Shown here in pieces: positions 543-29,006 of a stretch of DNA of 29,642 nucleotides. The stretch's first letter is position 1, and every line of letters starts with the position of its first letter. A model generated the notes under the pieces. The model was not told where the DNA came from. It was given only the letters and a program-made list of their open reading frames with translations, and searched no databases. A program made the translations under genes and the position numbers. The stretch is from an uncultured bacterium (GTDB lineage Bacteria > Latescibacterota > UBA2968 > UBA8231): positions 1 through 29,642 of the forward strand of contig CAXFTV010000594.1 of NCBI GenBank assembly GCA_964005845.1. The letters are read 5' to 3'.

Positions 543-1304
543 TCAAAAAGGCAGATCGGCAAACCTGGACAGCACATCAGGGCCCTCTCTGGTGATGGCG
601 ACGGTGTGTTCAAACTGGGCCGATAGCTTTCCATCCTCGGTGACGGCCGTCCACTCATCCTCCAGAACCCGCACCCCCGGACGGCCCTGGTTGACCATGG
701 GTTCGATGGTAAAAACCATGCCGGCCTGCAAGCGCCGACCGGTACCGGGCAAGCCAAAATGCAAAAGCTGCGGTTCCTCGTGAAACGCGCGCCCTATTCC
801 ATGGCCGCAATAGTCGCGCACTACCGAATAACCCTGAGCTTCTACATAGCTTTGAATCGCATGCCCTATATCTCCCAGGCGCTTGCCCTTTTCAGAAGCT
901 TGTAAGCCCAGTTCCAGCGCCTGTCGGGTAGCCTCTAACAAACGCCTGGTCTCGACGTCCCCAGCACCAACCATGACGGAAACATTCATATCCCCGTGAT
1001 AACCATCTTTCTGGGCCGCAATATCCACCGCGAGCAAATCGCCTTCCTCGAGCACTTGCTCGCCCGGAATGCCGTGCACCACGACCTCATTTACCGAGAC
1101 GCAAATACTCCTGGGGTAGCCCTTGTAATTTTTGGCGCTGGCCACGGCCCCCTGTTTGCGAATGTAGGTATCGGCCACCTGATCCAACCTGAGGGTGGTG
1201 GTGCCGGCAGCTACTTCTTCGATGACCCGCAGCATAGCTTCAGCTGCGATTCGGCAACTCGTGCGGATCTTTTCAATTTCGCGGTCGGATTTGAGATGTA
1301 TCAT
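543..1304 (-). CDS. map: Methionine aminopeptidase, type I
   Basis: MIHLKSDREIEK start; SVNEVVVHGIP, DIAAQKDGYHGD, GHGIGRAFHEEP, FTIEPM and SAQFEHTV metal-binding motifs. Confidence 0.98.
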   Translation of the reverse strand: MIHLKSDREIEKIRTSCRIAAEAMLRVIEEVAAGTTTLRLDQVADTYIRKQGAVASAKNYKGYPRSICVSVNEVVVHGIPGEQVLEEGDLLAVDIAAQKDGYHGDMNVSVMVGAGDVETRRLLEATRQALELGLQASEKGKRLGDIGHAIQSYVEAQGYSVVRDYCGHGIGRAFHEEPQLLHFGLPGTGRRLQAGMVFTIEPMVNQGRPGVRVLEDEWTAVTEDGKLSAQFEHTVAITREGPDVLSRFADLPF

Positions 1305-1368: not shown

Positions 1369-1390
1369 GTTTCAAACACTTATTTTGCCC

Positions 1391-2407
1391 ATGCCGCTGG
1401 TTTCCGTTCTCATGTCCGCGTACAATGCCGCCGCCACTCTGGATGAGACCCTGCAGACCCTGCAGGCCCAGACCATGGACGACTTTGAGGTCGTCGCAGT
1501 GGATGACGGCTCCACAGACGCAACCCGACAAATCCTCACAAACTGGCAAAAGAGCTTCCCCTCTCTACGCTTGATCAGTGCCCCCCACAGAGGCCTGATC
1601 CCCGCTCTCAACGAAGGTCTGGGACTGTGCCGGGGGACGCTCGTAGCGCGCATGGACGCAGACGATCTAGCCCACCCTCAGCGCCTTGAAAAACAGGCGC
1701 AACTTTTACAGCGACAACCCGATATCAGCGTCGTGGGCTCACTCGTCAAAACTTTTCCCCGGGAAGATGTAGGCCCGGGGCTCCGCATCTACGAAGATTG
1801 GCTCAACCAGCTGGTGCACCACGATGATATCGCCCGCGAAATCTTCATCGAAAGTCCACTGGCCAACCCTTCGGCCATGGTGCGACGACAAGAAATCCTC
1901 GACCTGGGGGGCTACTGCGAACACGGCTGGCCCGAAGACTACGACCTGTGGCTGCGCTATTTCGCGGCGGGGCGGCGTTTCGCCAAAGTCCCCGAGGTCT
2001 TGCTCTGCTGGCGCGAACACCCGGGGCGCGTCACCCATACCGACAGCCGCTACTCGGTGGAAAATTTCCTGCGCGCCAAAGCATTCTATCTTGGCCAGGG
2101 CCCCTTGCGCGAATCCCGGGACCTGCTCGTGTGGGGCGCCGGTAAAACTGGACGACGGTTGTCAAAACATCTAATCCGCGGAGGTTTCAGGCCTCGTGCT
2201 TTTGTAGACATAGCCACGGCAAAAATAGGCAAGACCCTGCGCGGCATACCGATCATCGGGGCAGCGGACCTGCCCGCCCTGTGGCACCAGCTGGAACGCC
2301 CACTGCTCCTGATCGCCGTAGCCTCGCGCGGCGCCCGGGCCCTGATTCGGACCGAACTGGCCCGCCTGCAGTTGGTGGAAACCCGAGACTTCTGGTGCGT
2401 GGCCTGA
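1391..2407 (+). CDS. Family 2 glycosyltransferase with C-terminal Rossmann-like domain (QTGAL/B3GNTL1-like architecture)
   Basis: VSVLMSAYNA, VDDGSTD, RMDADD (DxD) and PEDYDLW GT-A motifs; C-terminal LVWGAGKTGRR and AFVDI. ATG at 1391 preferred over the TTG at 1385. Confidence 0.9.
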   Translation: MPLVSVLMSAYNAAATLDETLQTLQAQTMDDFEVVAVDDGSTDATRQILTNWQKSFPSLRLISAPHRGLIPALNEGLGLCRGTLVARMDADDLAHPQRLEKQAQLLQRQPDISVVGSLVKTFPREDVGPGLRIYEDWLNQLVHHDDIAREIFIESPLANPSAMVRRQEILDLGGYCEHGWPEDYDLWLRYFAAGRRFAKVPEVLLCWREHPGRVTHTDSRYSVENFLRAKAFYLGQGPLRESRDLLVWGAGKTGRRLSKHLIRGGFRPRAFVDIATAKIGKTLRGIPIIGAADLPALWHQLERPLLLIAVASRGARALIRTELARLQLVETRDFWCVA

Positions 2408-2440: not shown

Positions 2441-3253
2441 ATGAGCACTTTTCACTACTGTCTTAATTCCAGCACCATCCGCCCGGCGCCGCTGCTGGAA
2501 AAAATCCGCATAGCCGGCAGCGTCGGCTATGCCGCCATCGAACTGTGGAATGACGATCTCGACGCCCACCTGCAGGCCGGCGGCAGCCTGGGCGAGATCA
2601 GGCAGGCGCTTGACGACGCCGGTCTTCAGGTTCCCACTGTCATCGCCGTACATGGCTGGCTCGGCTCCTCCGGCCCTTCCCATGCCCGCGCCCTGGACGA
2701 AGCTCGCCGCCGCATGGAACAGGCTGTGGAAGTAGGTGCGGCCCACATCGTCGCCAGTCCGGCGATGGAATCCGTGGACCTGTCGCACAGCGGTGCCGAG
2801 TACCGCGAACTGCTGGAATTGGGCCGCCGGATCGGCGTGGCTCCGGCCATGGAATACCTGGGTTTCGTCGCCAGTGTCTACACCATTGACCAGGCCTGGC
2901 AAATCGCAACTGAGGCCGACCACCCCGACGCCACCATAATCATGGATCCATTCCACATCCTGCGCGGCGGCGGTAGCCTTGAGAGTATTGCGAAAGTCCC
3001 CGGCGAAAAAGTGGCCATCTGGCACTGGAACGACGTGCCGGACACCCGACCCATCAACCAGCAAACGGACGCTGATCGAGTCCTGCCCGGCGATGGTGTG
3101 GGGCCGCTGATGCAGATCGAAGGCCTGGCCCGCCAGCAGGGTTATTCTGGTTTTGTTTCGCTTGAACTATTCAACCCCAAACTCTGGGAACGGGACCCCG
3201 AAGAAGTAGCCCGCATCGGCCTCGACAAGATGCAGGCATATTTCGCGACTTGA
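2441..3253 (+). CDS. Sugar phosphate isomerase/epimerase, xylose-isomerase-like TIM barrel (IolI-like)
   Basis: GYAAIELW, AMEYLGF, MDPFH, WHWND, DRVLPGDG and SLELF metal-ligand pattern; SD GAGG upstream. Confidence 0.9.
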   Translation: MSTFHYCLNSSTIRPAPLLEKIRIAGSVGYAAIELWNDDLDAHLQAGGSLGEIRQALDDAGLQVPTVIAVHGWLGSSGPSHARALDEARRRMEQAVEVGAAHIVASPAMESVDLSHSGAEYRELLELGRRIGVAPAMEYLGFVASVYTIDQAWQIATEADHPDATIIMDPFHILRGGGSLESIAKVPGEKVAIWHWNDVPDTRPINQQTDADRVLPGDGVGPLMQIEGLARQQGYSGFVSLELFNPKLWERDPEEVARIGLDKMQAYFAT

Positions 3254-3305: not shown

Positions 3306-3836
3306 GTGGAATTAACCCAGAGAGTGGAACTGGTGCAGGGCGATATCACGCGCTTGCACGTAGATGCCATTGTCAATGCTGCCAATCGCTCGCTCCTGGG
3401 CGGCGGCGGCGTAGACGGCGCCATCCATCGAGCCGCCGGCCCAGAACTCCTGAGCGCGTGTCGCCGCCTGGGGGGCTGCGACACCGGCGAGGCCAGAATC
3501 ACCCGCGGCTACAAACTGCCCGCGCGCTATGTCATCCATGCGGTAGGTCCCATTTACCAGGGGTCTGCGAAAGATGCCCACCTCCTGGCCGCCTGCTACG
3601 AACACAGTCTCGAACTGGCCGCCGAACACGAACTGGAAAGCATCGCTTTCCCCGCCATCAGCTGCGGCATCTACGGCTACCCCATTGCCGCGGCCTGTGT
3701 CGTGGCAATGGCGACTACGGGCACTTTCCTTGCGGAACATTCCCGTCCTTCCAAAGTTGTATTTGCGCTCTTTTCCGCAGCTGATTACCAGGTCTACGCA
3801 GAACAGTTGGCACAATTCAAGGGCCCATTCTGCTAA
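3306..3836 (+). CDS. ymdB: Macrodomain protein, O-acetyl-ADP-ribose deacetylase (YmdB/MacroD type)
   Basis: GDIT, AIVNAANRSLLGGGGVDGAIHRAAG, VIHAVGP and SIAFPAISCGIYGYP signatures; GTG start. Confidence 0.95.
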   Translation: MELTQRVELVQGDITRLHVDAIVNAANRSLLGGGGVDGAIHRAAGPELLSACRRLGGCDTGEARITRGYKLPARYVIHAVGPIYQGSAKDAHLLAACYEHSLELAAEHELESIAFPAISCGIYGYPIAAACVVAMATTGTFLAEHSRPSKVVFALFSAADYQVYAEQLAQFKGPFC

Positions 3837-3951: not shown

Positions 3952-4452
3952 TTAGAGGCCCAGAATTTCGCGGGTTAGTTTGGGCAGATGATGCCAGTCT
4001 CTCAGTTCATAGCGATTGCCATCCGCATCTTCTATGAGCGCGCGGTGGCCCGAGAGCAGACGGATATTTTTGCGGATCTGGCGAATCTCGATGTGGCGGA
4101 GACCGCTCGAGGTTTCGACGTCGGCGTTGACTACGCCGAATTCTTCGTCGATGTGGTCAACGCCGAGAATGAGGGGGCAAAAGTATATCTTATCCAATTC
4201 CACGCGCAGGCAGGACCGGCTGTCTTCAGCCAGTTCATCAATATCTTCGAGCAGCCCCAATTCGGCTCCGTCCGCAAGGAAAAAACCGATGAAACGGGTG
4301 GAGGATTCCAGCGGAAAAGCACAGCGGATCTTGGGATCTGCGTATTCTTTCCCATCCAGATTCACCACCAATTCACCGCGCTCCGAATAATAGATTTCAA
4401 GGCGATCCGGATCCAGAATATGCTCTTCGTATCTCTGGTCTTCTCCCAGCAT
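3952..4452 (-). CDS. DUF1854 domain-containing protein
   Basis: RCAFPL...ELGLLEDIDEL...DVETSSG...IRLL...LIEDADGNRYEL pattern of DUF1854; TAATG stop/start overlap with the upstream ABC gene. Confidence 0.85.
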   Translation of the reverse strand: MLGEDQRYEEHILDPDRLEIYYSERGELVVNLDGKEYADPKIRCAFPLESSTRFIGFFLADGAELGLLEDIDELAEDSRSCLRVELDKIYFCPLILGVDHIDEEFGVVNADVETSSGLRHIEIRQIRKNIRLLSGHRALIEDADGNRYELRDWHHLPKLTREILGL

Positions 4453-6797
4453 TAGATAACCCTCGTTTTAGCCAGTTCGGTCTGCATATCCACCAGACGC
4501 CGATAAACGCCGTCCTCCTTGAGCAGCAACTCCTCGTGCGTGCCGACCTCGGCGACCCGGCCTTTTTCCAGAACTAGGAGCCGATCCGCGTTTTTCAAGG
4601 TGGAAAGGCGGTGTGCAATTGCAAAAGTAGTACGACCGGCAGTGAGACGCTCCAGAGCTTCCTGGATCTCGTACTCGGTCTCGGTGTCGACCGAACTAGT
4701 GGCCTCGTCGAGGATGAGAATTCGCGGTTGTCCGATCAGGGCGCGGGCAATCGAGATACGCTGGCGCTCGCCGCCCGAAAGTCGACCGCCGCGCTCACCG
4801 ACCTCGGTGTCGTAGCCATCCGGAAAATTCATGATAAACTTGTGTGCGTTGGCAGCTCGGGCGGCGGCAATAATCTGCTGACGGGTGGATTCCGGCCGTC
4901 CATAGGCGATATTCTGAGCAATGCTGCCGTGGAAAAGTAGCGGCTCCTGCAACACCACGCCAATCTGACCACGCAGTTTGCGCTGTTCTATTTCCGTGAT
5001 GCGCTGGTCGTCGATGAGAACTTCGCCGTCCGTGGCATCGTAAAAGCGCGAAACCAGATTGACCAGAGTGGACTTGCCGGCACCGCTTGGTCCGACGATG
5101 CCGATCATCTCACCTGGCTCAACCGCAAAGTTGACCTGGTCGAGGATGCGTTCAAACCCATCGTAGGTAAAGCTGACATTGCGAAACTCCACCGCGCCTT
5201 CCAGCACCCCCGGATCGATGGCATCTCTATGGTCGAAGACCTCCGGCTCGGTGTCGAGAATTTCGAAAACCCGCTCGGCGGAAGTGGCGGCACTTTCCAA
5301 CTCCTCGGACAGGGAGCACAGCTGATTCACCGGCTGGTAGAACATCATCATGTAGGCAATAAAGGCCTGCAAATCGCCCAAAGTCAGGGTATTCTCCAGC
5401 ACCCTGCTGCCACCAAACCACCACAAGACCACCGATCCGATGGAGGTGACAAAGGTGATAGAAGGCATAAAATAGGACCGCATCTTGATAGATTGCATTC
5501 TGGATTGACGCAATTCCGCACTGCACCGGTCAAAGCGATCAATCTCGCGGTTCTCCTGGGCAAATGCTTTGACCACCTTGGCCCCGGGAATGGTATCGGC
5601 CAGATGCGAGTTGAGCACGGCGACGCGTCGCCAGATCCCGTGAAAGACCCAGTGGATGCGCCGGGTGTAAAGTAGAGTTCCGAGAACCATTACCGGGACC
5701 GGAATCAGGGCCAGAATGGCCAGTTGCCAATTCATCAAGAACAATGCCACGCCGATACCCACCAGGGTCAAAATCGCGATCACCATGTCCTGGAAACCGC
5801 GGGTAATGAACATCCGCATACGATCGGTATCGCTGGTAACCCGGGTCATGATACGACCGGTGCTCATCTGGCTGAAAAAGCCGAGCGATAGAAGCTGAAG
5901 ATATCTGAAAACCTCGGTCTGCAAATCGTAGGCCACGTGCTGGCCGAGCCAACCCAGACAATAGGTCCGGGCGGCGCCCAACAACGCCCTTGTCAGATAG
6001 ATACCCAACAATCCCAGGACCACCCAGAGCAACAATTCCACCGCCTCCGGCGGCGGAATTTTGGCTAGCGTACGTTCACCGCCCTCGAGCGGCGCTGAAC
6101 TACTGGAACTAGAGGCCGCCTCGCCCCTTCCTTCCAAGCCGCTATTTTGGACGACCACCGGCGTGATGACATCGTCGATGAGAATGCGGTTTAGCTGTGG
6201 TGGCAACAGACTGACAGCGGTAATTATCAAGGTGAGGGCGAAACCCAACAGGGCCACCCCTTTGTAGGGGACGACATAAGAGAAGAGGCGCCAGAAAGTC
6301 TCCGTCTTGCGGATACAGTGCAGACAAACCGTAGTACCCGCTCTGAGAGCCCGACCGCAGGTGGAACAATGCATCACCTGGCGGGGTGCCGGAGCTGCCT
6401 CCTTCTCTTCCGCCTCCAACTCGGATCGCTGCAGATCGGCCGAGGCGGCCTCGACCGCATGCGGCACTCCCGAAAATTTGTAGTAGGCACTCTGGGAGAA
6501 CCGCACCAACTCAATGGTCTCGTCGGCCAGTTCTACCAACAGCGTGCCGTTGCCTACATAATTTCTGGTCTGGACTCTGCGGACTTTCTCCAGCTCAATG
6601 CTGCGGATATCGGGCTCGCCTACTCCGTTGGCGCGCAAGACTATGAGCCGCTCGTCCGTAAGCGCAAACCAGGAATCTCCGTACATGCCGTCCAGGCATA
6701 GATCGGCCTTGAGTAGCATCAGCAGGAGTTCGCCCACGTTCAGCTCCCCGCGCAGATGAATTTCCAGTTCCTTGGCAATGGGCTCGACCAAATTCAC
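4452..6797 (-). CDS. Fused ABC exporter (TMD+NBD) with N-terminal PH-like domain and CxxC...CxxC zinc ribbon
   Basis: Walker A GPSGAGKST, Q-loop VLQEP, LSGGERQR, Walker B ILILDE and H-loop IAHRLST; 6-TM permease; about 160-aa N-terminal extension ending in CSTCG...CLHC. GTG 6797 (GAGG upstream) chosen; 6815 is the alternative start. Confidence 0.93.
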   Translation of the reverse strand: MNLVEPIAKELEIHLRGELNVGELLLMLLKADLCLDGMYGDSWFALTDERLIVLRANGVGEPDIRSIELEKVRRVQTRNYVGNGTLLVELADETIELVRFSQSAYYKFSGVPHAVEAASADLQRSELEAEEKEAAPAPRQVMHCSTCGRALRAGTTVCLHCIRKTETFWRLFSYVVPYKGVALLGFALTLIITAVSLLPPQLNRILIDDVITPVVVQNSGLEGRGEAASSSSSSAPLEGGERTLAKIPPPEAVELLLWVVLGLLGIYLTRALLGAARTYCLGWLGQHVAYDLQTEVFRYLQLLSLGFFSQMSTGRIMTRVTSDTDRMRMFITRGFQDMVIAILTLVGIGVALFLMNWQLAILALIPVPVMVLGTLLYTRRIHWVFHGIWRRVAVLNSHLADTIPGAKVVKAFAQENREIDRFDRCSAELRQSRMQSIKMRSYFMPSITFVTSIGSVVLWWFGGSRVLENTLTLGDLQAFIAYMMMFYQPVNQLCSLSEELESAATSAERVFEILDTEPEVFDHRDAIDPGVLEGAVEFRNVSFTYDGFERILDQVNFAVEPGEMIGIVGPSGAGKSTLVNLVSRFYDATDGEVLIDDQRITEIEQRKLRGQIGVVLQEPLLFHGSIAQNIAYGRPESTRQQIIAAARAANAHKFIMNFPDGYDTEVGERGGRLSGGERQRISIARALIGQPRILILDEATSSVDTETEYEIQEALERLTAGRTTFAIAHRLSTLKNADRLLVLEKGRVAEVGTHEELLLKEDGVYRRLVDMQTELAKTRVI

Positions 6798-7158
6798 GAC
6801 AATATCCTCGCGCACCCTGGGATCAAATGCCCATAGGCGCTCCAGAACGGTGTTTGCTGGAGTTATTTAACGGGGAATAGTAGAAAAAGATCCAAATGGG
6901 AGGGAGATCATTTTGGACTAATTTAAAGTTAAGTCCCCGGTCTGATAAACGCAAATACCTTGACTTTCTATTGCCGCCTGGGATCTTGCCTTGGCCTGGA
7001 TAATTACATACCTTGATCCCAGCCTTAGATGTGCATCCAAGCACAACCCTGGGATTGGCATTGCAGCGACGATCACCAGAGGTTTGGGGGCGATTTTGAA
7101 AGCCTTCTAATCCGTGTTACACCGGTCCTTACCACCCGACAGGAGTTTTCGAAATCTC

Positions 7159-17403: not shown

Positions 17404-18675
17404 GTGAAAAACTTTGTAGTCGGCGTCATTATCTTGCTCCTGGGAGTGCTGGGTCCGCAACAAAGTTTTGAATATGAGCCCGTGTGGACGCTGGGCCTGC
17501 TTTTACTGCTGGCCTTTTTAGCCCAGCAACTCGCCACCTTTATGGGCCTTTCCGCGCTCTTCGGCTGGATTGGCGCCGGCCTGATTCTCGGTCCCAGCCT
17601 TTTGCAGACCGTCCAGCCCGGCCAATTCATCTCTCTGCAACTGCTCCATACTCTAGCCGCTCTGTGGGTCGGTTTTCTGGTTGGAAGGGAGTTTTCCTGG
17701 CCGCCCTTAACCCCGCGATGGCGTTTATCCGGCTGCATCGCCCTGACCACCGTGGGCCTTTTTCTCGCCACAGCCATCGCCATCGGCTCCATGACCGAAC
17801 TCCCGGGCTGGCTGGCCTTGCTCTTCGCTGCCCTCGCTACTTTGTGGGGACCTTTTTCCACCTGGCAACAGCGGGACTATACCCACGTTATCACAGCTGC
17901 AATCCTGGGTAATGGCTTCAGTCTTATCGTGCTGAGCACGACGCTGGTTTTCCTGTCCTTGGAGGGGTTTTTACCCCTCCAAGCTCTGTATCTGACAGGC
18001 CGGATCTGGCTTTCGCTCCTGGCCGGCATCTGTGCCGCCGAGTTGCTGTGGCGCCTGAAAATTTTTGCGGCCCCAGTCCACACGCTGCTGCCAGTGGTCT
18101 TTGCCAGTTTCGCCCTCCTCACCTCCATGCTGTACTACCTGCACCTCTACGCCCTGCCCTGTGGCCTGGCAGCTGGACTCACCCTGGCCTGGCACAGGTG
18201 CGGGACCGCACCCCTAGAGCGCGTTCAGCAATTTATGCGCCCCATAGCATTCGCCACCTTTTTTGCCCTCGTGGGCGCCACCATCGACCTGCACATCTTG
18301 TGGCCAGTCCCCAACGAAATCTATCAGATTCTGGCGATCCAGATCCTCGCGGTCCTCTTTTTTCGGGCTCTGCTTCCTTCTATCTGGACTCCCTTTGGCG
18401 CCGCGGCCCTCAGCTCTCAAAAACATATTGGCTGGCTCCTCCTGCCCAAGGGCGCGCTACTCTTCGAGTTGATCTATCACCGGAACAGCCTGGTAGACCT
18501 GGTGCAAAACCACTGGGGGCAACTGCTGCACCAGGTATTTCTGACCGACATCCTGATACACCTTCTGGCCTTTTCTCTGCTGGCTGCCTTCATCTGGCGG
18601 CAGATCCAGTCCAATGCAGCGCAAAGTGGCACGGCCGCAGAGAAACCAGATACCAGTCCAGCACCAGCCCCTTGA
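17404..18675 (+). CDS. Polytopic membrane protein, divergent cation:proton antiporter (CPA2/Na_H_exchanger-like)
   Basis: About 12 hydrophobic segments; GWIGAGLILGP and GFLVGREF resemble the CPA N-terminal motifs, LLPKG the late motif; GGAG SD and GTG start. Confidence 0.65.
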   Translation: MKNFVVGVIILLLGVLGPQQSFEYEPVWTLGLLLLLAFLAQQLATFMGLSALFGWIGAGLILGPSLLQTVQPGQFISLQLLHTLAALWVGFLVGREFSWPPLTPRWRLSGCIALTTVGLFLATAIAIGSMTELPGWLALLFAALATLWGPFSTWQQRDYTHVITAAILGNGFSLIVLSTTLVFLSLEGFLPLQALYLTGRIWLSLLAGICAAELLWRLKIFAAPVHTLLPVVFASFALLTSMLYYLHLYALPCGLAAGLTLAWHRCGTAPLERVQQFMRPIAFATFFALVGATIDLHILWPVPNEIYQILAIQILAVLFFRALLPSIWTPFGAAALSSQKHIGWLLLPKGALLFELIYHRNSLVDLVQNHWGQLLHQVFLTDILIHLLAFSLLAAFIWRQIQSNAAQSGTAAEKPDTSPAPAP

Positions 18676-27653: not shown

Positions 27654-29006
27654 ATGTCAACCTTTCCCCTTTGCTGGCTGCGCCGCAACGGCCCTTTCCT
27701 AGTGGTTGGTCTCGCCATTGAAGCAGCGCTGCTCTATCTGCTCTATCTGGGTGATTTGCACACCCGGATTCCACTGTTCTGGTGCGGTGCCTTTGCCGCT
27801 TTTGGATTCTATCTCCTCGGCACTTACCTGGTAATATATCGGCCAACTGGATCAGTACACCTGATTCTACTTCTCGCCCTGGCCTTCCGCCTGACCATGT
27901 GGTGGAGTCCTCCCACTCTTTCGGACGACATCTACCGCTACGTCTGGGACGGCCGCGTCCAATTGGCCGGCATCAACCCCTATCGGCATCCCCCGGAAGC
28001 ACCAGTACTGTCGCCGCTGCGCGACGCGCTCTATCCCGGCATCAATCACAAGGAAATCCCGACGATTTACCCTCCCCTGAGCCAGTTGTTTTTTCGTCTG
28101 GTGTGCACCTTTCAGCCGGGCCTGGGAATGATGAAATTTGCCCTTATGACGATCGAGTGCGCTATCGTGCTCCTGCTTGTTAAAATTCTATTGCAACAGC
28201 GCCGGGATCCCCGCCGGGTTCTGCTCTACGCCTGGAATCCGCTGCCCCCGATCGAAATTGCCGGCAGCGGCCACAGCGATGCCCTCGGCGTTTTCTTTTT
28301 ATTACTGGCGCTCTACGGACTGTCAGCCGGACGCAAAACTGCTGCGGTCTGGGCCCTGAGCGCTGCTTTTCTCAGCAAGCTTCTGCCCATTCTGGCCCTG
28401 CCGCTTTTCTGGCGCCGCATGGGGGAACATCCTTTCCACCCTCGGGGGCGCTGGCCCCTGATCTTGTTCCCCGTTCTGGGTTCCCTCGGTTTTCTTCTCT
28501 TCGCCGACGGCGGCACCCACTTGTTCACCGGCCTGCAGACATACCTGCTGAAGTGGCGCTTCAACGATGCTTTGTTCTCACTTTTTTATGAAATCATCAA
28601 AAATCCCAGCCTCGAATGGGACGATGCCGCACTGCTACTAACCAGGCAGATCTTTACCGGCATCCTGCTGCTCACCGCTCTTTGGGCACCGCTGAAATAT
28701 GCAAACCCCTATCGCGCCACCTTCATAATCATGGCTGTTTATCTGCTGCTATCGCCCACGCTGCACCCCTGGTACCTGCTGTGGCTACTGCCCTTCCTAA
28801 CCCTGTTTCCACAACCGGCCTGGATAATTTTGAGCGGCCTCATCTTCCTTGCTTATGAAGTATTGATTGGCTATAGTATGAACAATGTTTGGGACGAACG
28901 CGACTGGGTGAAATGGACTCAGTTTGGGCCATTTTTTTTGCTCCTGATCCTGCAGTTAGCGCTCGCGCGCCGGCGCCGCAAAGACACCCAGGAATCCAAG
29001 ATATGA
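27654..29006 (+). CDS. Integral-membrane GT-C glycosyltransferase, GT87/DUF2029-like
   Basis: SDDIYRYVWDG, GINPY, YPPL, WNPL..EIAGSGHSD and HPWY; multiple TM segments; starts directly after the NlpC/P60 TAA. Confidence 0.85.
   Translation: MSTFPLCWLRRNGPFLVVGLAIEAALLYLLYLGDLHTRIPLFWCGAFAAFGFYLLGTYLVIYRPTGSVHLILLLALAFRLTMWWSPPTLSDDIYRYVWDGRVQLAGINPYRHPPEAPVLSPLRDALYPGINHKEIPTIYPPLSQLFFRLVCTFQPGLGMMKFALMTIECAIVLLLVKILLQQRRDPRRVLLYAWNPLPPIEIAGSGHSDALGVFFLLLALYGLSAGRKTAAVWALSAAFLSKLLPILALPLFWRRMGEHPFHPRGRWPLILFPVLGSLGFLLFADGGTHLFTGLQTYLLKWRFNDALFSLFYEIIKNPSLEWDDAALLLTRQIFTGILLLTALWAPLKYANPYRATFIIMAVYLLLSPTLHPWYLLWLLPFLTLFPQPAWIILSGLIFLAYEVLIGYSMNNVWDERDWVKWTQFGPFFLLLILQLALARRRRKDTQESKI

Follow-up and report, generated by a model that had tools for sequence, protein, structure and literature searches.

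A gene for a family 2 glycosyltransferase (GT2) lies in a 29,642-nt stretch of DNA from an uncultured bacterium of the Latescibacterota (UBA2968; UBA8231), which was taken from the forward strand of contig CAXFTV010000594.1 in assembly GCA_964005845.1 and is referred to here, over its whole length, as the window. The encoded protein, P0001, resembles QTGAL (B3GNTL1), the enzyme that galactosylates queuosine-34 of tRNA-Tyr (PMC11755703, PMC12518689), and the gene adds a bacterial member to this known kind of enzyme. In mosquitoes, loss of QTGAL accompanies the absence of galactosyl-queuosine (galQ) (PMC11705514). A sequence-only reading of this DNA had proposed that P0001 is co-linear with QTGAL and may glycosylate queuosine-containing tRNA or another nucleic-acid or small-molecule acceptor. 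Here we examine the domains, fold, relatives and genomic context of P0001, and weigh the acceptors that it might use.

Domain organization of P0001

The open reading frame (ORF) is intact from 1385 to 2407 (+), with a TTG start codon at 1385 as an alternative to the ATG at 1391. Residue conservation is given for an alignment of 103 family sequences (A1), which also served as the input for an AlphaFold2 (AF2) model of the protein. The coding sequence and the parts of the protein are the following.

1391..2407 (+): coding sequence of the QTGAL-like glycosyltransferase (P0001, 338 aa), stop codon included; from the ORF list and its translation
1391..2095 (+): GT-A (GT2) catalytic domain, residues 1-235; from PF00535, AF2 secondary structure and GT-A matches in the Protein Data Bank (PDB)
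1499..1519 (+): VDDGSTD motif, residues 37-43; D38 is conserved in 92% and D39 in 98% of the 103 family members
1655..1666 (+): D89-A-D91-D92, the DxD metal/diphosphate-binding motif, with R87 before it; R87, D89, D91 and D92 are invariant in A1
1931..1942 (+): P-E182-D183-Y motif; E182 and D183 are invariant in A1
2096..2404 (+): basic C-terminal Rossmann-like domain (C-domain), residues 236-338; from AF2 of the domain alone, fold matches and isoelectric point (pI)
2135..2152 (+): glycine-rich loop G249-x-G251-x-x-G254 of the C-domain; G249 is invariant, G251 92% and G254 80% conserved

The Pfam family Glycos_transf_2 (PF00535) was matched over residues 5-170 (E 2e-32). Invariance in A1 extends to R87, D89, D91, D92, W137, E182, D183 and G249. 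An acidic pair typically binds the nucleotide in GT2 enzymes, and D38/D39 would have this role in P0001. By analogy with the "ED" base of GT2 enzymes, D183 would presumably serve as catalytic base in an inverting reaction.

The motifs quoted in the sequence-only reading were all located in P0001: VDDGSTD at residue 37, DADD at 89, YEDWLNQL at 134, PEDY at 181 and WREHP at 207, followed in the C-domain by LVWGAGKTGRRLSKHL at 246, AFVDIATAKI at 270 and LQLVETRDFWCVA from 326 to the C-terminal end. That reading had described a soluble GT-A domain joined to a short Rossmann-like domain, and the description holds: no membrane segment is present in P0001, in which the highest Kyte-Doolittle value over a 19-residue window is 1.08, and the AF2 model is compact. 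The two domains have very different pI values, 5.4 for the GT-A part and 11.6 for the C-domain, with family medians of 6.5 and 10.1, respectively. Basic residues are conserved in the C-domain at R255, K259, K278, R316 and R320, and a domain of this kind would be compatible with RNA binding.

Fold of P0001 and its nearest relatives

The AF2 model of P0001 is a compact, globular structure (mean predicted local distance difference test score, pLDDT, 98.0; predicted template modelling score, pTM, 0.94). When the model was compared by Foldseek with the AlphaFold models of Swiss-Prot (n=550,129), the top four matches were human, rat, mouse and zebrafish QTGAL (E 6e-27 to 3e-23; template modelling, TM, score 0.82-0.84; identity 23-25%). 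The alignment spans residues 2-338 of P0001, or from residue 8 in the case of the zebrafish protein, and hence both domains. All matches from rank 5 onward are to ordinary GT2 enzymes; these align with the GT-A half alone and reach a TM score by query of <=0.64. The co-linearity with QTGAL is therefore confirmed by structure, since only the QTGAL entries cover both domains, and the likeness extends beyond generic GT2 motifs to a superposition of the whole chain.

Other collections gave a compatible picture. Fold and sequence searches of the PDB with P0001 returned no two-domain match, only GT-A enzymes (WrtF, K4CP, SpsA, TarS and RmlT). Among the fold clusters of the AlphaFold database (AFDB), a bacterial cluster came first (TM 0.96, 42% identity), followed by unnamed full-length matches at 20-24% identity. 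A feature search of the ESM Atlas reached a eukaryotic cluster named "beta-1,3-N-acetylglucosaminyltransferase-like 1" (B3GNT-like 1).

Modelled alone from a second alignment (A2), the C-domain is a small Rossmann-like module (pLDDT 96.6). Its best folds in the PDB are the WbpM-type N-domain 3nkl (TM 0.75), the NAD domain of Rex, the N-domains of VioB, PerB and PglB, and WbaP. NCBIfam profiles gave weak matches on residues 240-333 to Rossmann-type regions of NeuD/PglB/VioB, Rex and WbaP.

P0001 and QTGAL (Q67FW5, Q6GV29, Q3U129 and Q4V9J0) share the same two domains in the same orientation, with a whole-chain TM score of 0.84. In both, a GT-A domain with DxD and ED motifs precedes a small Rossmann-like C-domain, and both are cytosolic proteins of ~340-360 aa that lack a membrane anchor. 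They differ in that P0001 is bacterial and in an identity of only 23-25%. Generic GT2 enzymes such as SpsA, EpsE, the chondroitin polymerase K4CP, TarS and WrtF resemble P0001 in their GT-A fold, in the DxD motif and in an inverting mechanism, and their sequence E-values to its GT-A half go down to 1e-22. In contrast to P0001, they cover only residues 1 to ~240, lack the C-terminal Rossmann-like domain, and are mostly found in glycan clusters or attached to membranes. The Rossmann-like N-modules of other enzymes (3nkl of WbpM/PglF-type dehydratases, NeuD/PglD/VioB/PerB, WbaP and Rex) have the fold of the C-domain (TM <=0.75), profile E-values of ~1e-7 to it, and likewise a glycine-rich loop. 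The C-domain differs from them in its position C-terminal to a glycosyltransferase, in its strongly basic character, and in the lack of a partner domain of the acyltransferase, dehydratase or DNA-binding type. Taken together, we regard it as very probable that P0001 is a member of a QTGAL-like two-domain family of GT2 enzymes.

Extent of the family in bacteria

A protein 100% identical to P0001 is present in a public collection, and full-length homologues number in the thousands. A word-indexed search with P0001 found at least 6,165 relatives among 8,000 candidates, of which the best 120 are 323-368 aa long and share >=57% identity over >=94% of the query. An exhaustive search gave 2,042 clusters (50% identity) at E <=1e-30. 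Members at 43-64% identity were found, in a collection of species genomes, in the Latescibacterota, Gemmatimonadota, Chloroflexota (Anaerolineales), Acidobacteriota (Thermoanaerobaculia), Armatimonadota, Verrucomicrobiota, Myxococcota, Bdellovibrionota, Thermodesulfobacteriota and Bacillota. Because identity remains at this level across phyla, one conserved acceptor is favoured over variable glycans.

This QTGAL-like bacterial family of ~340 aa is sharply bounded from other GT2 enzymes. The Chloroflexota carriers (14 of 251 genomes, ~6%) match at E <1e-120 over positions 2-336, and the next-best matches in that phylum are paralogues with a GT-A domain only, at E 1e-42 to 1e-61 over positions 1-230. 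Among the Myxococcota the gene is carried by 75 of 201 genomes (37%), almost always in single copy. These carriers include genomes of 9-12.7 Mb, which may belong to cultured organisms. Cultured carriers occur in the Bacteroidota, where Aureibacter tunicatorum (NBRC 107587) and Persicobacter sp. JZB09 have full-length members on megaplasmids.

Queuosine as a candidate acceptor

P0001 is best explained as a cytosolic, inverting, metal-dependent GT2 of the QTGAL/B3GNTL1 two-domain family. In the mechanism proposed for it, the GT-A domain would take up a UDP-hexose, whose nucleotide would be held by D38/D39 and whose diphosphate, together with Mn2+/Mg2+, would be held by D89-x-D91. The acceptor hydroxyl would lose its proton to D183 in an inverting transfer, and the strongly basic C-domain would hold or position the acceptor. 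The likeliest single acceptor would be the cyclopentenediol of queuosine-34 in a tRNA with a GUN anticodon, and the product would be a hexosyl-queuosine, which has so far not been described in bacteria. That P0001 hexosylates queuosine in tRNA is a tentative proposal that we hold with somewhat less than even confidence.

Several observations agree with it. QTGAL is the sole characterised protein with the architecture of P0001, and it acts on tRNA. Identity across phyla, the usual single copy, a scattered housekeeping context and the basic C-domain fit a conserved macromolecular acceptor such as tRNA. The source genome, a metagenome-assembled genome (MAG) of 806 contigs and 81% completeness, contains tgt, queA and queG above curated cut-offs, so that the presumed substrate exists in it; its tRNAs with GUN anticodons are tRNA-Tyr(GTA), tRNA-Asp(GTC) and tRNA-His(GTG). 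Among close carriers, queA is present in 49 of 50.

A number of points weigh against the proposal. At 23-25% identity to QTGAL, the acceptor specificity may not have been kept. Among solved structures, those nearest to the C-domain belong to binders of nucleotide-sugars or NAD and not of RNA. A literature search found no description of bacterial QTGAL homologues or of bacterial hexosyl-queuosine, in line with the sequence-only reading, which knew of no characterised hexosylated queuosine in bacteria. Genes for queuosine synthesis are also not linked to the glycosyltransferase. We examined 113 related loci, of which 83 had up to 8 kb of flanking sequence and 30, all from Myxococcota, had 1.5 kb; no queA, tgt or queG adjoins the glycosyltransferase gene within these distances. 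The sole match of the linkage search is a tgt-like stretch in a Gemmatimonadota MAG (L019:82-633, -), ~7.4 kb upstream of the glycosyltransferase gene and 33% identical to the TGT of the source genome, which is probably a paralogue.

Further, tgt is no commoner in carriers than in non-carriers. It is present in 14 of 14 Chloroflexota carriers as compared with 206 of 237 non-carriers (220 of 251 overall; a result with a chance probability of ~0.16), and in 71 of 75 Myxococcota carriers as compared with 118 of 126 non-carriers, the latter tally including one genome flagged as unpublished (G494, a tgt-positive non-carrier), which enters into no other claim. The co-occurrence with tgt, which the sequence-only reading had proposed as a check, therefore equals background in both phyla, and it is uninformative because tgt is near-universal. 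A pooled binomial comparison (tgt in 61 of 63 carriers against a background of 88%) was dropped, since its samples were unmatched and phylogenetically non-independent. As a separate observation, about half of the sampled Myxococcota, and nearly all of those of 9-12 Mb, have two full-length tgt paralogues above the curated cut-off; this duplication is independent of carrying the glycosyltransferase.

The last of these points comes from the Chloroflexota, in which 12 carriers that passed a 90% completeness filter have tgt and lack queA (G074, G114, G123, G150, G159, G175, G191, G215, G231, G247, G263 and G295; loci L100-L112). In the five of them that were checked, queG, queC, YhhQ and Qng1 are all absent as well. 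The genomes of this clade are of 4-6 Mb, and tgt is present in them in one or two bona fide copies (E ~1e-137). The glycosyltransferases of these genomes group together on a single long stem (Shimodaira-Hasegawa-like approximate likelihood ratio test, SH-aLRT, 100; length 1.07), and because they are monophyletic, the absence of queA represents one evolutionary event. The clade needs either direct salvage of queuine or a function of the glycosyltransferase that is independent of queuosine. Homologues in genomes that lack queuosine had been named in the sequence-only reading as evidence that would speak against a queuosine acceptor; carriers are for the most part not of this kind, and the queA-less Chloroflexota come close to it. 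The TGT of these organisms is an orphan with no known supply of precursor.

A broader form of the proposal holds that many environmental bacteria, among them Latescibacterota, Anaerolineales, Acidobacteriota and more than a third of the sampled Myxococcota, make hexosylated queuosine by this enzyme, that eukaryotic QTGAL descends from the bacterial family, and that the queA-less Chloroflexota salvage queuine. The latter organisms would insert salvaged queuine directly and then glycosylate it, in a mirror of the eukaryotic pathway. We consider this broader form rather doubtful, and a little more so than the proposal for P0001 by itself.

Genomic neighbourhood

The genes closest to the glycosyltransferase gene in the window are the following.

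543..1304 (-): map (methionine aminopeptidase), divergent from the glycosyltransferase gene; Pfam Peptidase_M24, E 9e-52
2441..3253 (+): xylose-isomerase-like TIM-barrel gene, 34 bases downstream of the glycosyltransferase gene; AP_endonuc_2, E 1e-27
3306..3836 (+): Macro-domain gene; Pfam Macro, E 2e-46
3952-4452 (-): DUF1854 gene; its stop codon overlaps the ABC transporter gene
4452-6815 (-): fused ABC transporter, 787 aa, with a cysteine-containing N-terminal extension of ~190 aa

The sequence-only reading had placed the gene divergent from map and outside any polysaccharide cluster, and both statements stand. The divergent pair with map recurs in 17 of the 83 loci with longer flanks, all of them from a Latescibacterota-like clade. 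No polysaccharide, lipopolysaccharide (LPS) or exopolysaccharide (EPS) genes were found in the 29.6-kb window, and no polysaccharide locus is present among the 113 related loci, so that homologues sitting in LPS or EPS loci, which would have spoken against a tRNA acceptor, were not encountered. The remaining 25 kb of the window has a housekeeping character and contains, besides the DUF1854/ABC pair, genes for a pyridoxal phosphate-dependent (PLP) enzyme, glycolate-oxidase-like FAD proteins, an enolase-superfamily protein, a polyprenyl synthase, ApbE, SecDF, IleRS, LspA and an RluD-like pseudouridine synthase. The DUF1854/ABC pair recurs near the glycosyltransferase region in related genomes. 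Two ORFs of the window, at 17404-18675 (+, 423 aa) and 27654-29006 (+, 450 aa), had no Pfam match at E <=1e-5.

No partner gene is shared across lineages among the 113 loci, and synteny is lineage-specific only. The Macro gene lies directly downstream of the glycosyltransferase gene in close relatives, is within 1.5 kb of it in 6 of the 83 loci and overlaps it in L010; in 8 of the 83, the TIM-barrel gene stands between the two, as it does in the window. This link to the Macro gene is specific to one lineage (loci L010-L029 and L038). In one lineage of the Myxococcota, aroQ is found upstream together with a convergent gene for an RluA/D-type pseudouridine synthase, and another Myxococcota lineage has a class-V aminotransferase gene by the glycosyltransferase gene. 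The neighbours in Anaerolineales are MscS, a metallophosphoesterase and a GalE-like gene, and in the other lineages the adjoining genes are unrelated to these.

Fusions of the glycosyltransferase to other domains were seen in two proteins, each encoded by a single ORF: P0213 (L098:5001-6470), which joins a TudS-type 2-thiouracil desulfurase (PF04463) to a full-length family member, and P0215 (L099:5001-6689), which joins a CYTH domain to one. Both are single-member clusters that were seen once, in housekeeping surroundings (tig-clpP-clpX and pth-rplY-prs), and they hint weakly at nucleotide or nucleobase chemistry. P0228 and P0262, which are extended at the N terminus, were rejected as fusions, since the extra residues look like artefacts of a wrong reading frame in high-GC DNA.

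Discussion

Two other enzymes serve for comparison with respect to the acceptor proposed here. Bacterial GluQRS, the glutamyl-queuosine synthetase, is a truncated aminoacyl-tRNA synthetase that decorates the cyclopentenediol of queuosine-34. The tRNA-Tyr of bacteria belongs to class II and has a long arm, in which it differs from the tRNA that QTGAL modifies in eukaryotes. QTMAN (GTDC1), the queuosine-tRNA mannosyltransferase, decorates the same cyclopentenediol (PMC11755703); it is a retaining enzyme outside GT2 and forms an alpha linkage (PMC12518689). Both are functional analogues on the proposed acceptor, with folds and chemistry unrelated to those of P0001.

An alternative that leaves the family assignment intact is that P0001 glycosylates another soluble acceptor, which could be a protein, a small metabolite, a cofactor or nucleotide, or a different base in a nucleic acid. 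In that case the Rossmann-like domain with its GxGxxG loop would bind the nucleotide moiety of the acceptor or a regulatory nucleotide. This would agree with the conserved glycine-rich loop and with the nearest relatives of the C-domain, by sequence and fold, which are nucleotide-sugar and NAD modules (3nkl, VioB, PerB, PglB, Rex and KtrA), although small-molecule binders do not usually have a pI as high as 10-11.6. Other soluble GT2 enzymes do use small molecules, an example being MftF, which is among the NCBIfam matches of P0001; the only enzyme of this architecture that has been characterised nevertheless acts on tRNA. The retention of the glycosyltransferase by Chloroflexota that lack queA, together with queG and queC in the five genomes checked, and the absence of linkage to queuosine genes in the 113 loci would both agree with such an acceptor. 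A metabolite pathway should, however, have a conserved partner gene, and none was found in any lineage sampled. The fusions to TudS and CYTH point to a chemistry of nucleotides or nucleobases in general, although each of them was observed just once. We consider an acceptor of this sort about as likely as queuosine in tRNA, at somewhat under an even chance.

The remaining alternative, that P0001 is an ordinary envelope or EPS enzyme, as in its automatic annotation ("glycosyltransferase involved in cell wall biosynthesis"), is improbable: the best NCBIfam and PDB sequence matches of the GT-A half are indeed EpsE, EpsD, TuaG, chondroitin polymerase and the like, and in a few Anaerolineales loci an epimerase resembling GalE and a surface protein of the LysM/SdrD type are encoded nearby, but the matches are confined to that half, and the NCBIfam equivalogs fall far below their cut-offs (EpsE best at 103.9 bits against 450, with all others, EpsD, TuaG and PgaC included, likewise short of theirs). 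P0001 also has no membrane segment, and neither the window nor the related loci contain a nearby gene for a flippase, a polymerase, a priming transferase or another glycosyltransferase. Enzymes of strain-variable glycans, moreover, would not be expected to keep 43-64% identity across phyla and, as a rule, a single copy in each genome.

If the acceptor is a different one from queuosine, the proteins would still form a highly conserved, unannotated family of cytosolic glycosyltransferases that current pipelines mislabel as cell-wall enzymes. That animal tRNA contains glycosylated queuosines has been known for decades; the enzymes responsible were named only recently, and what the modified nucleosides are for is still under debate (PMC12518689, PMC11755703). 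The existence of cultured carriers makes the question of whether bacteria glycosylate queuosine directly testable. If they do so by means of this enzyme, the bacterial family would offer genetically tractable systems for the role of the sugar on queuosine, and would suggest an origin for eukaryotic QTGAL, such that the glycosylation of queuosine would not be a eukaryotic invention.

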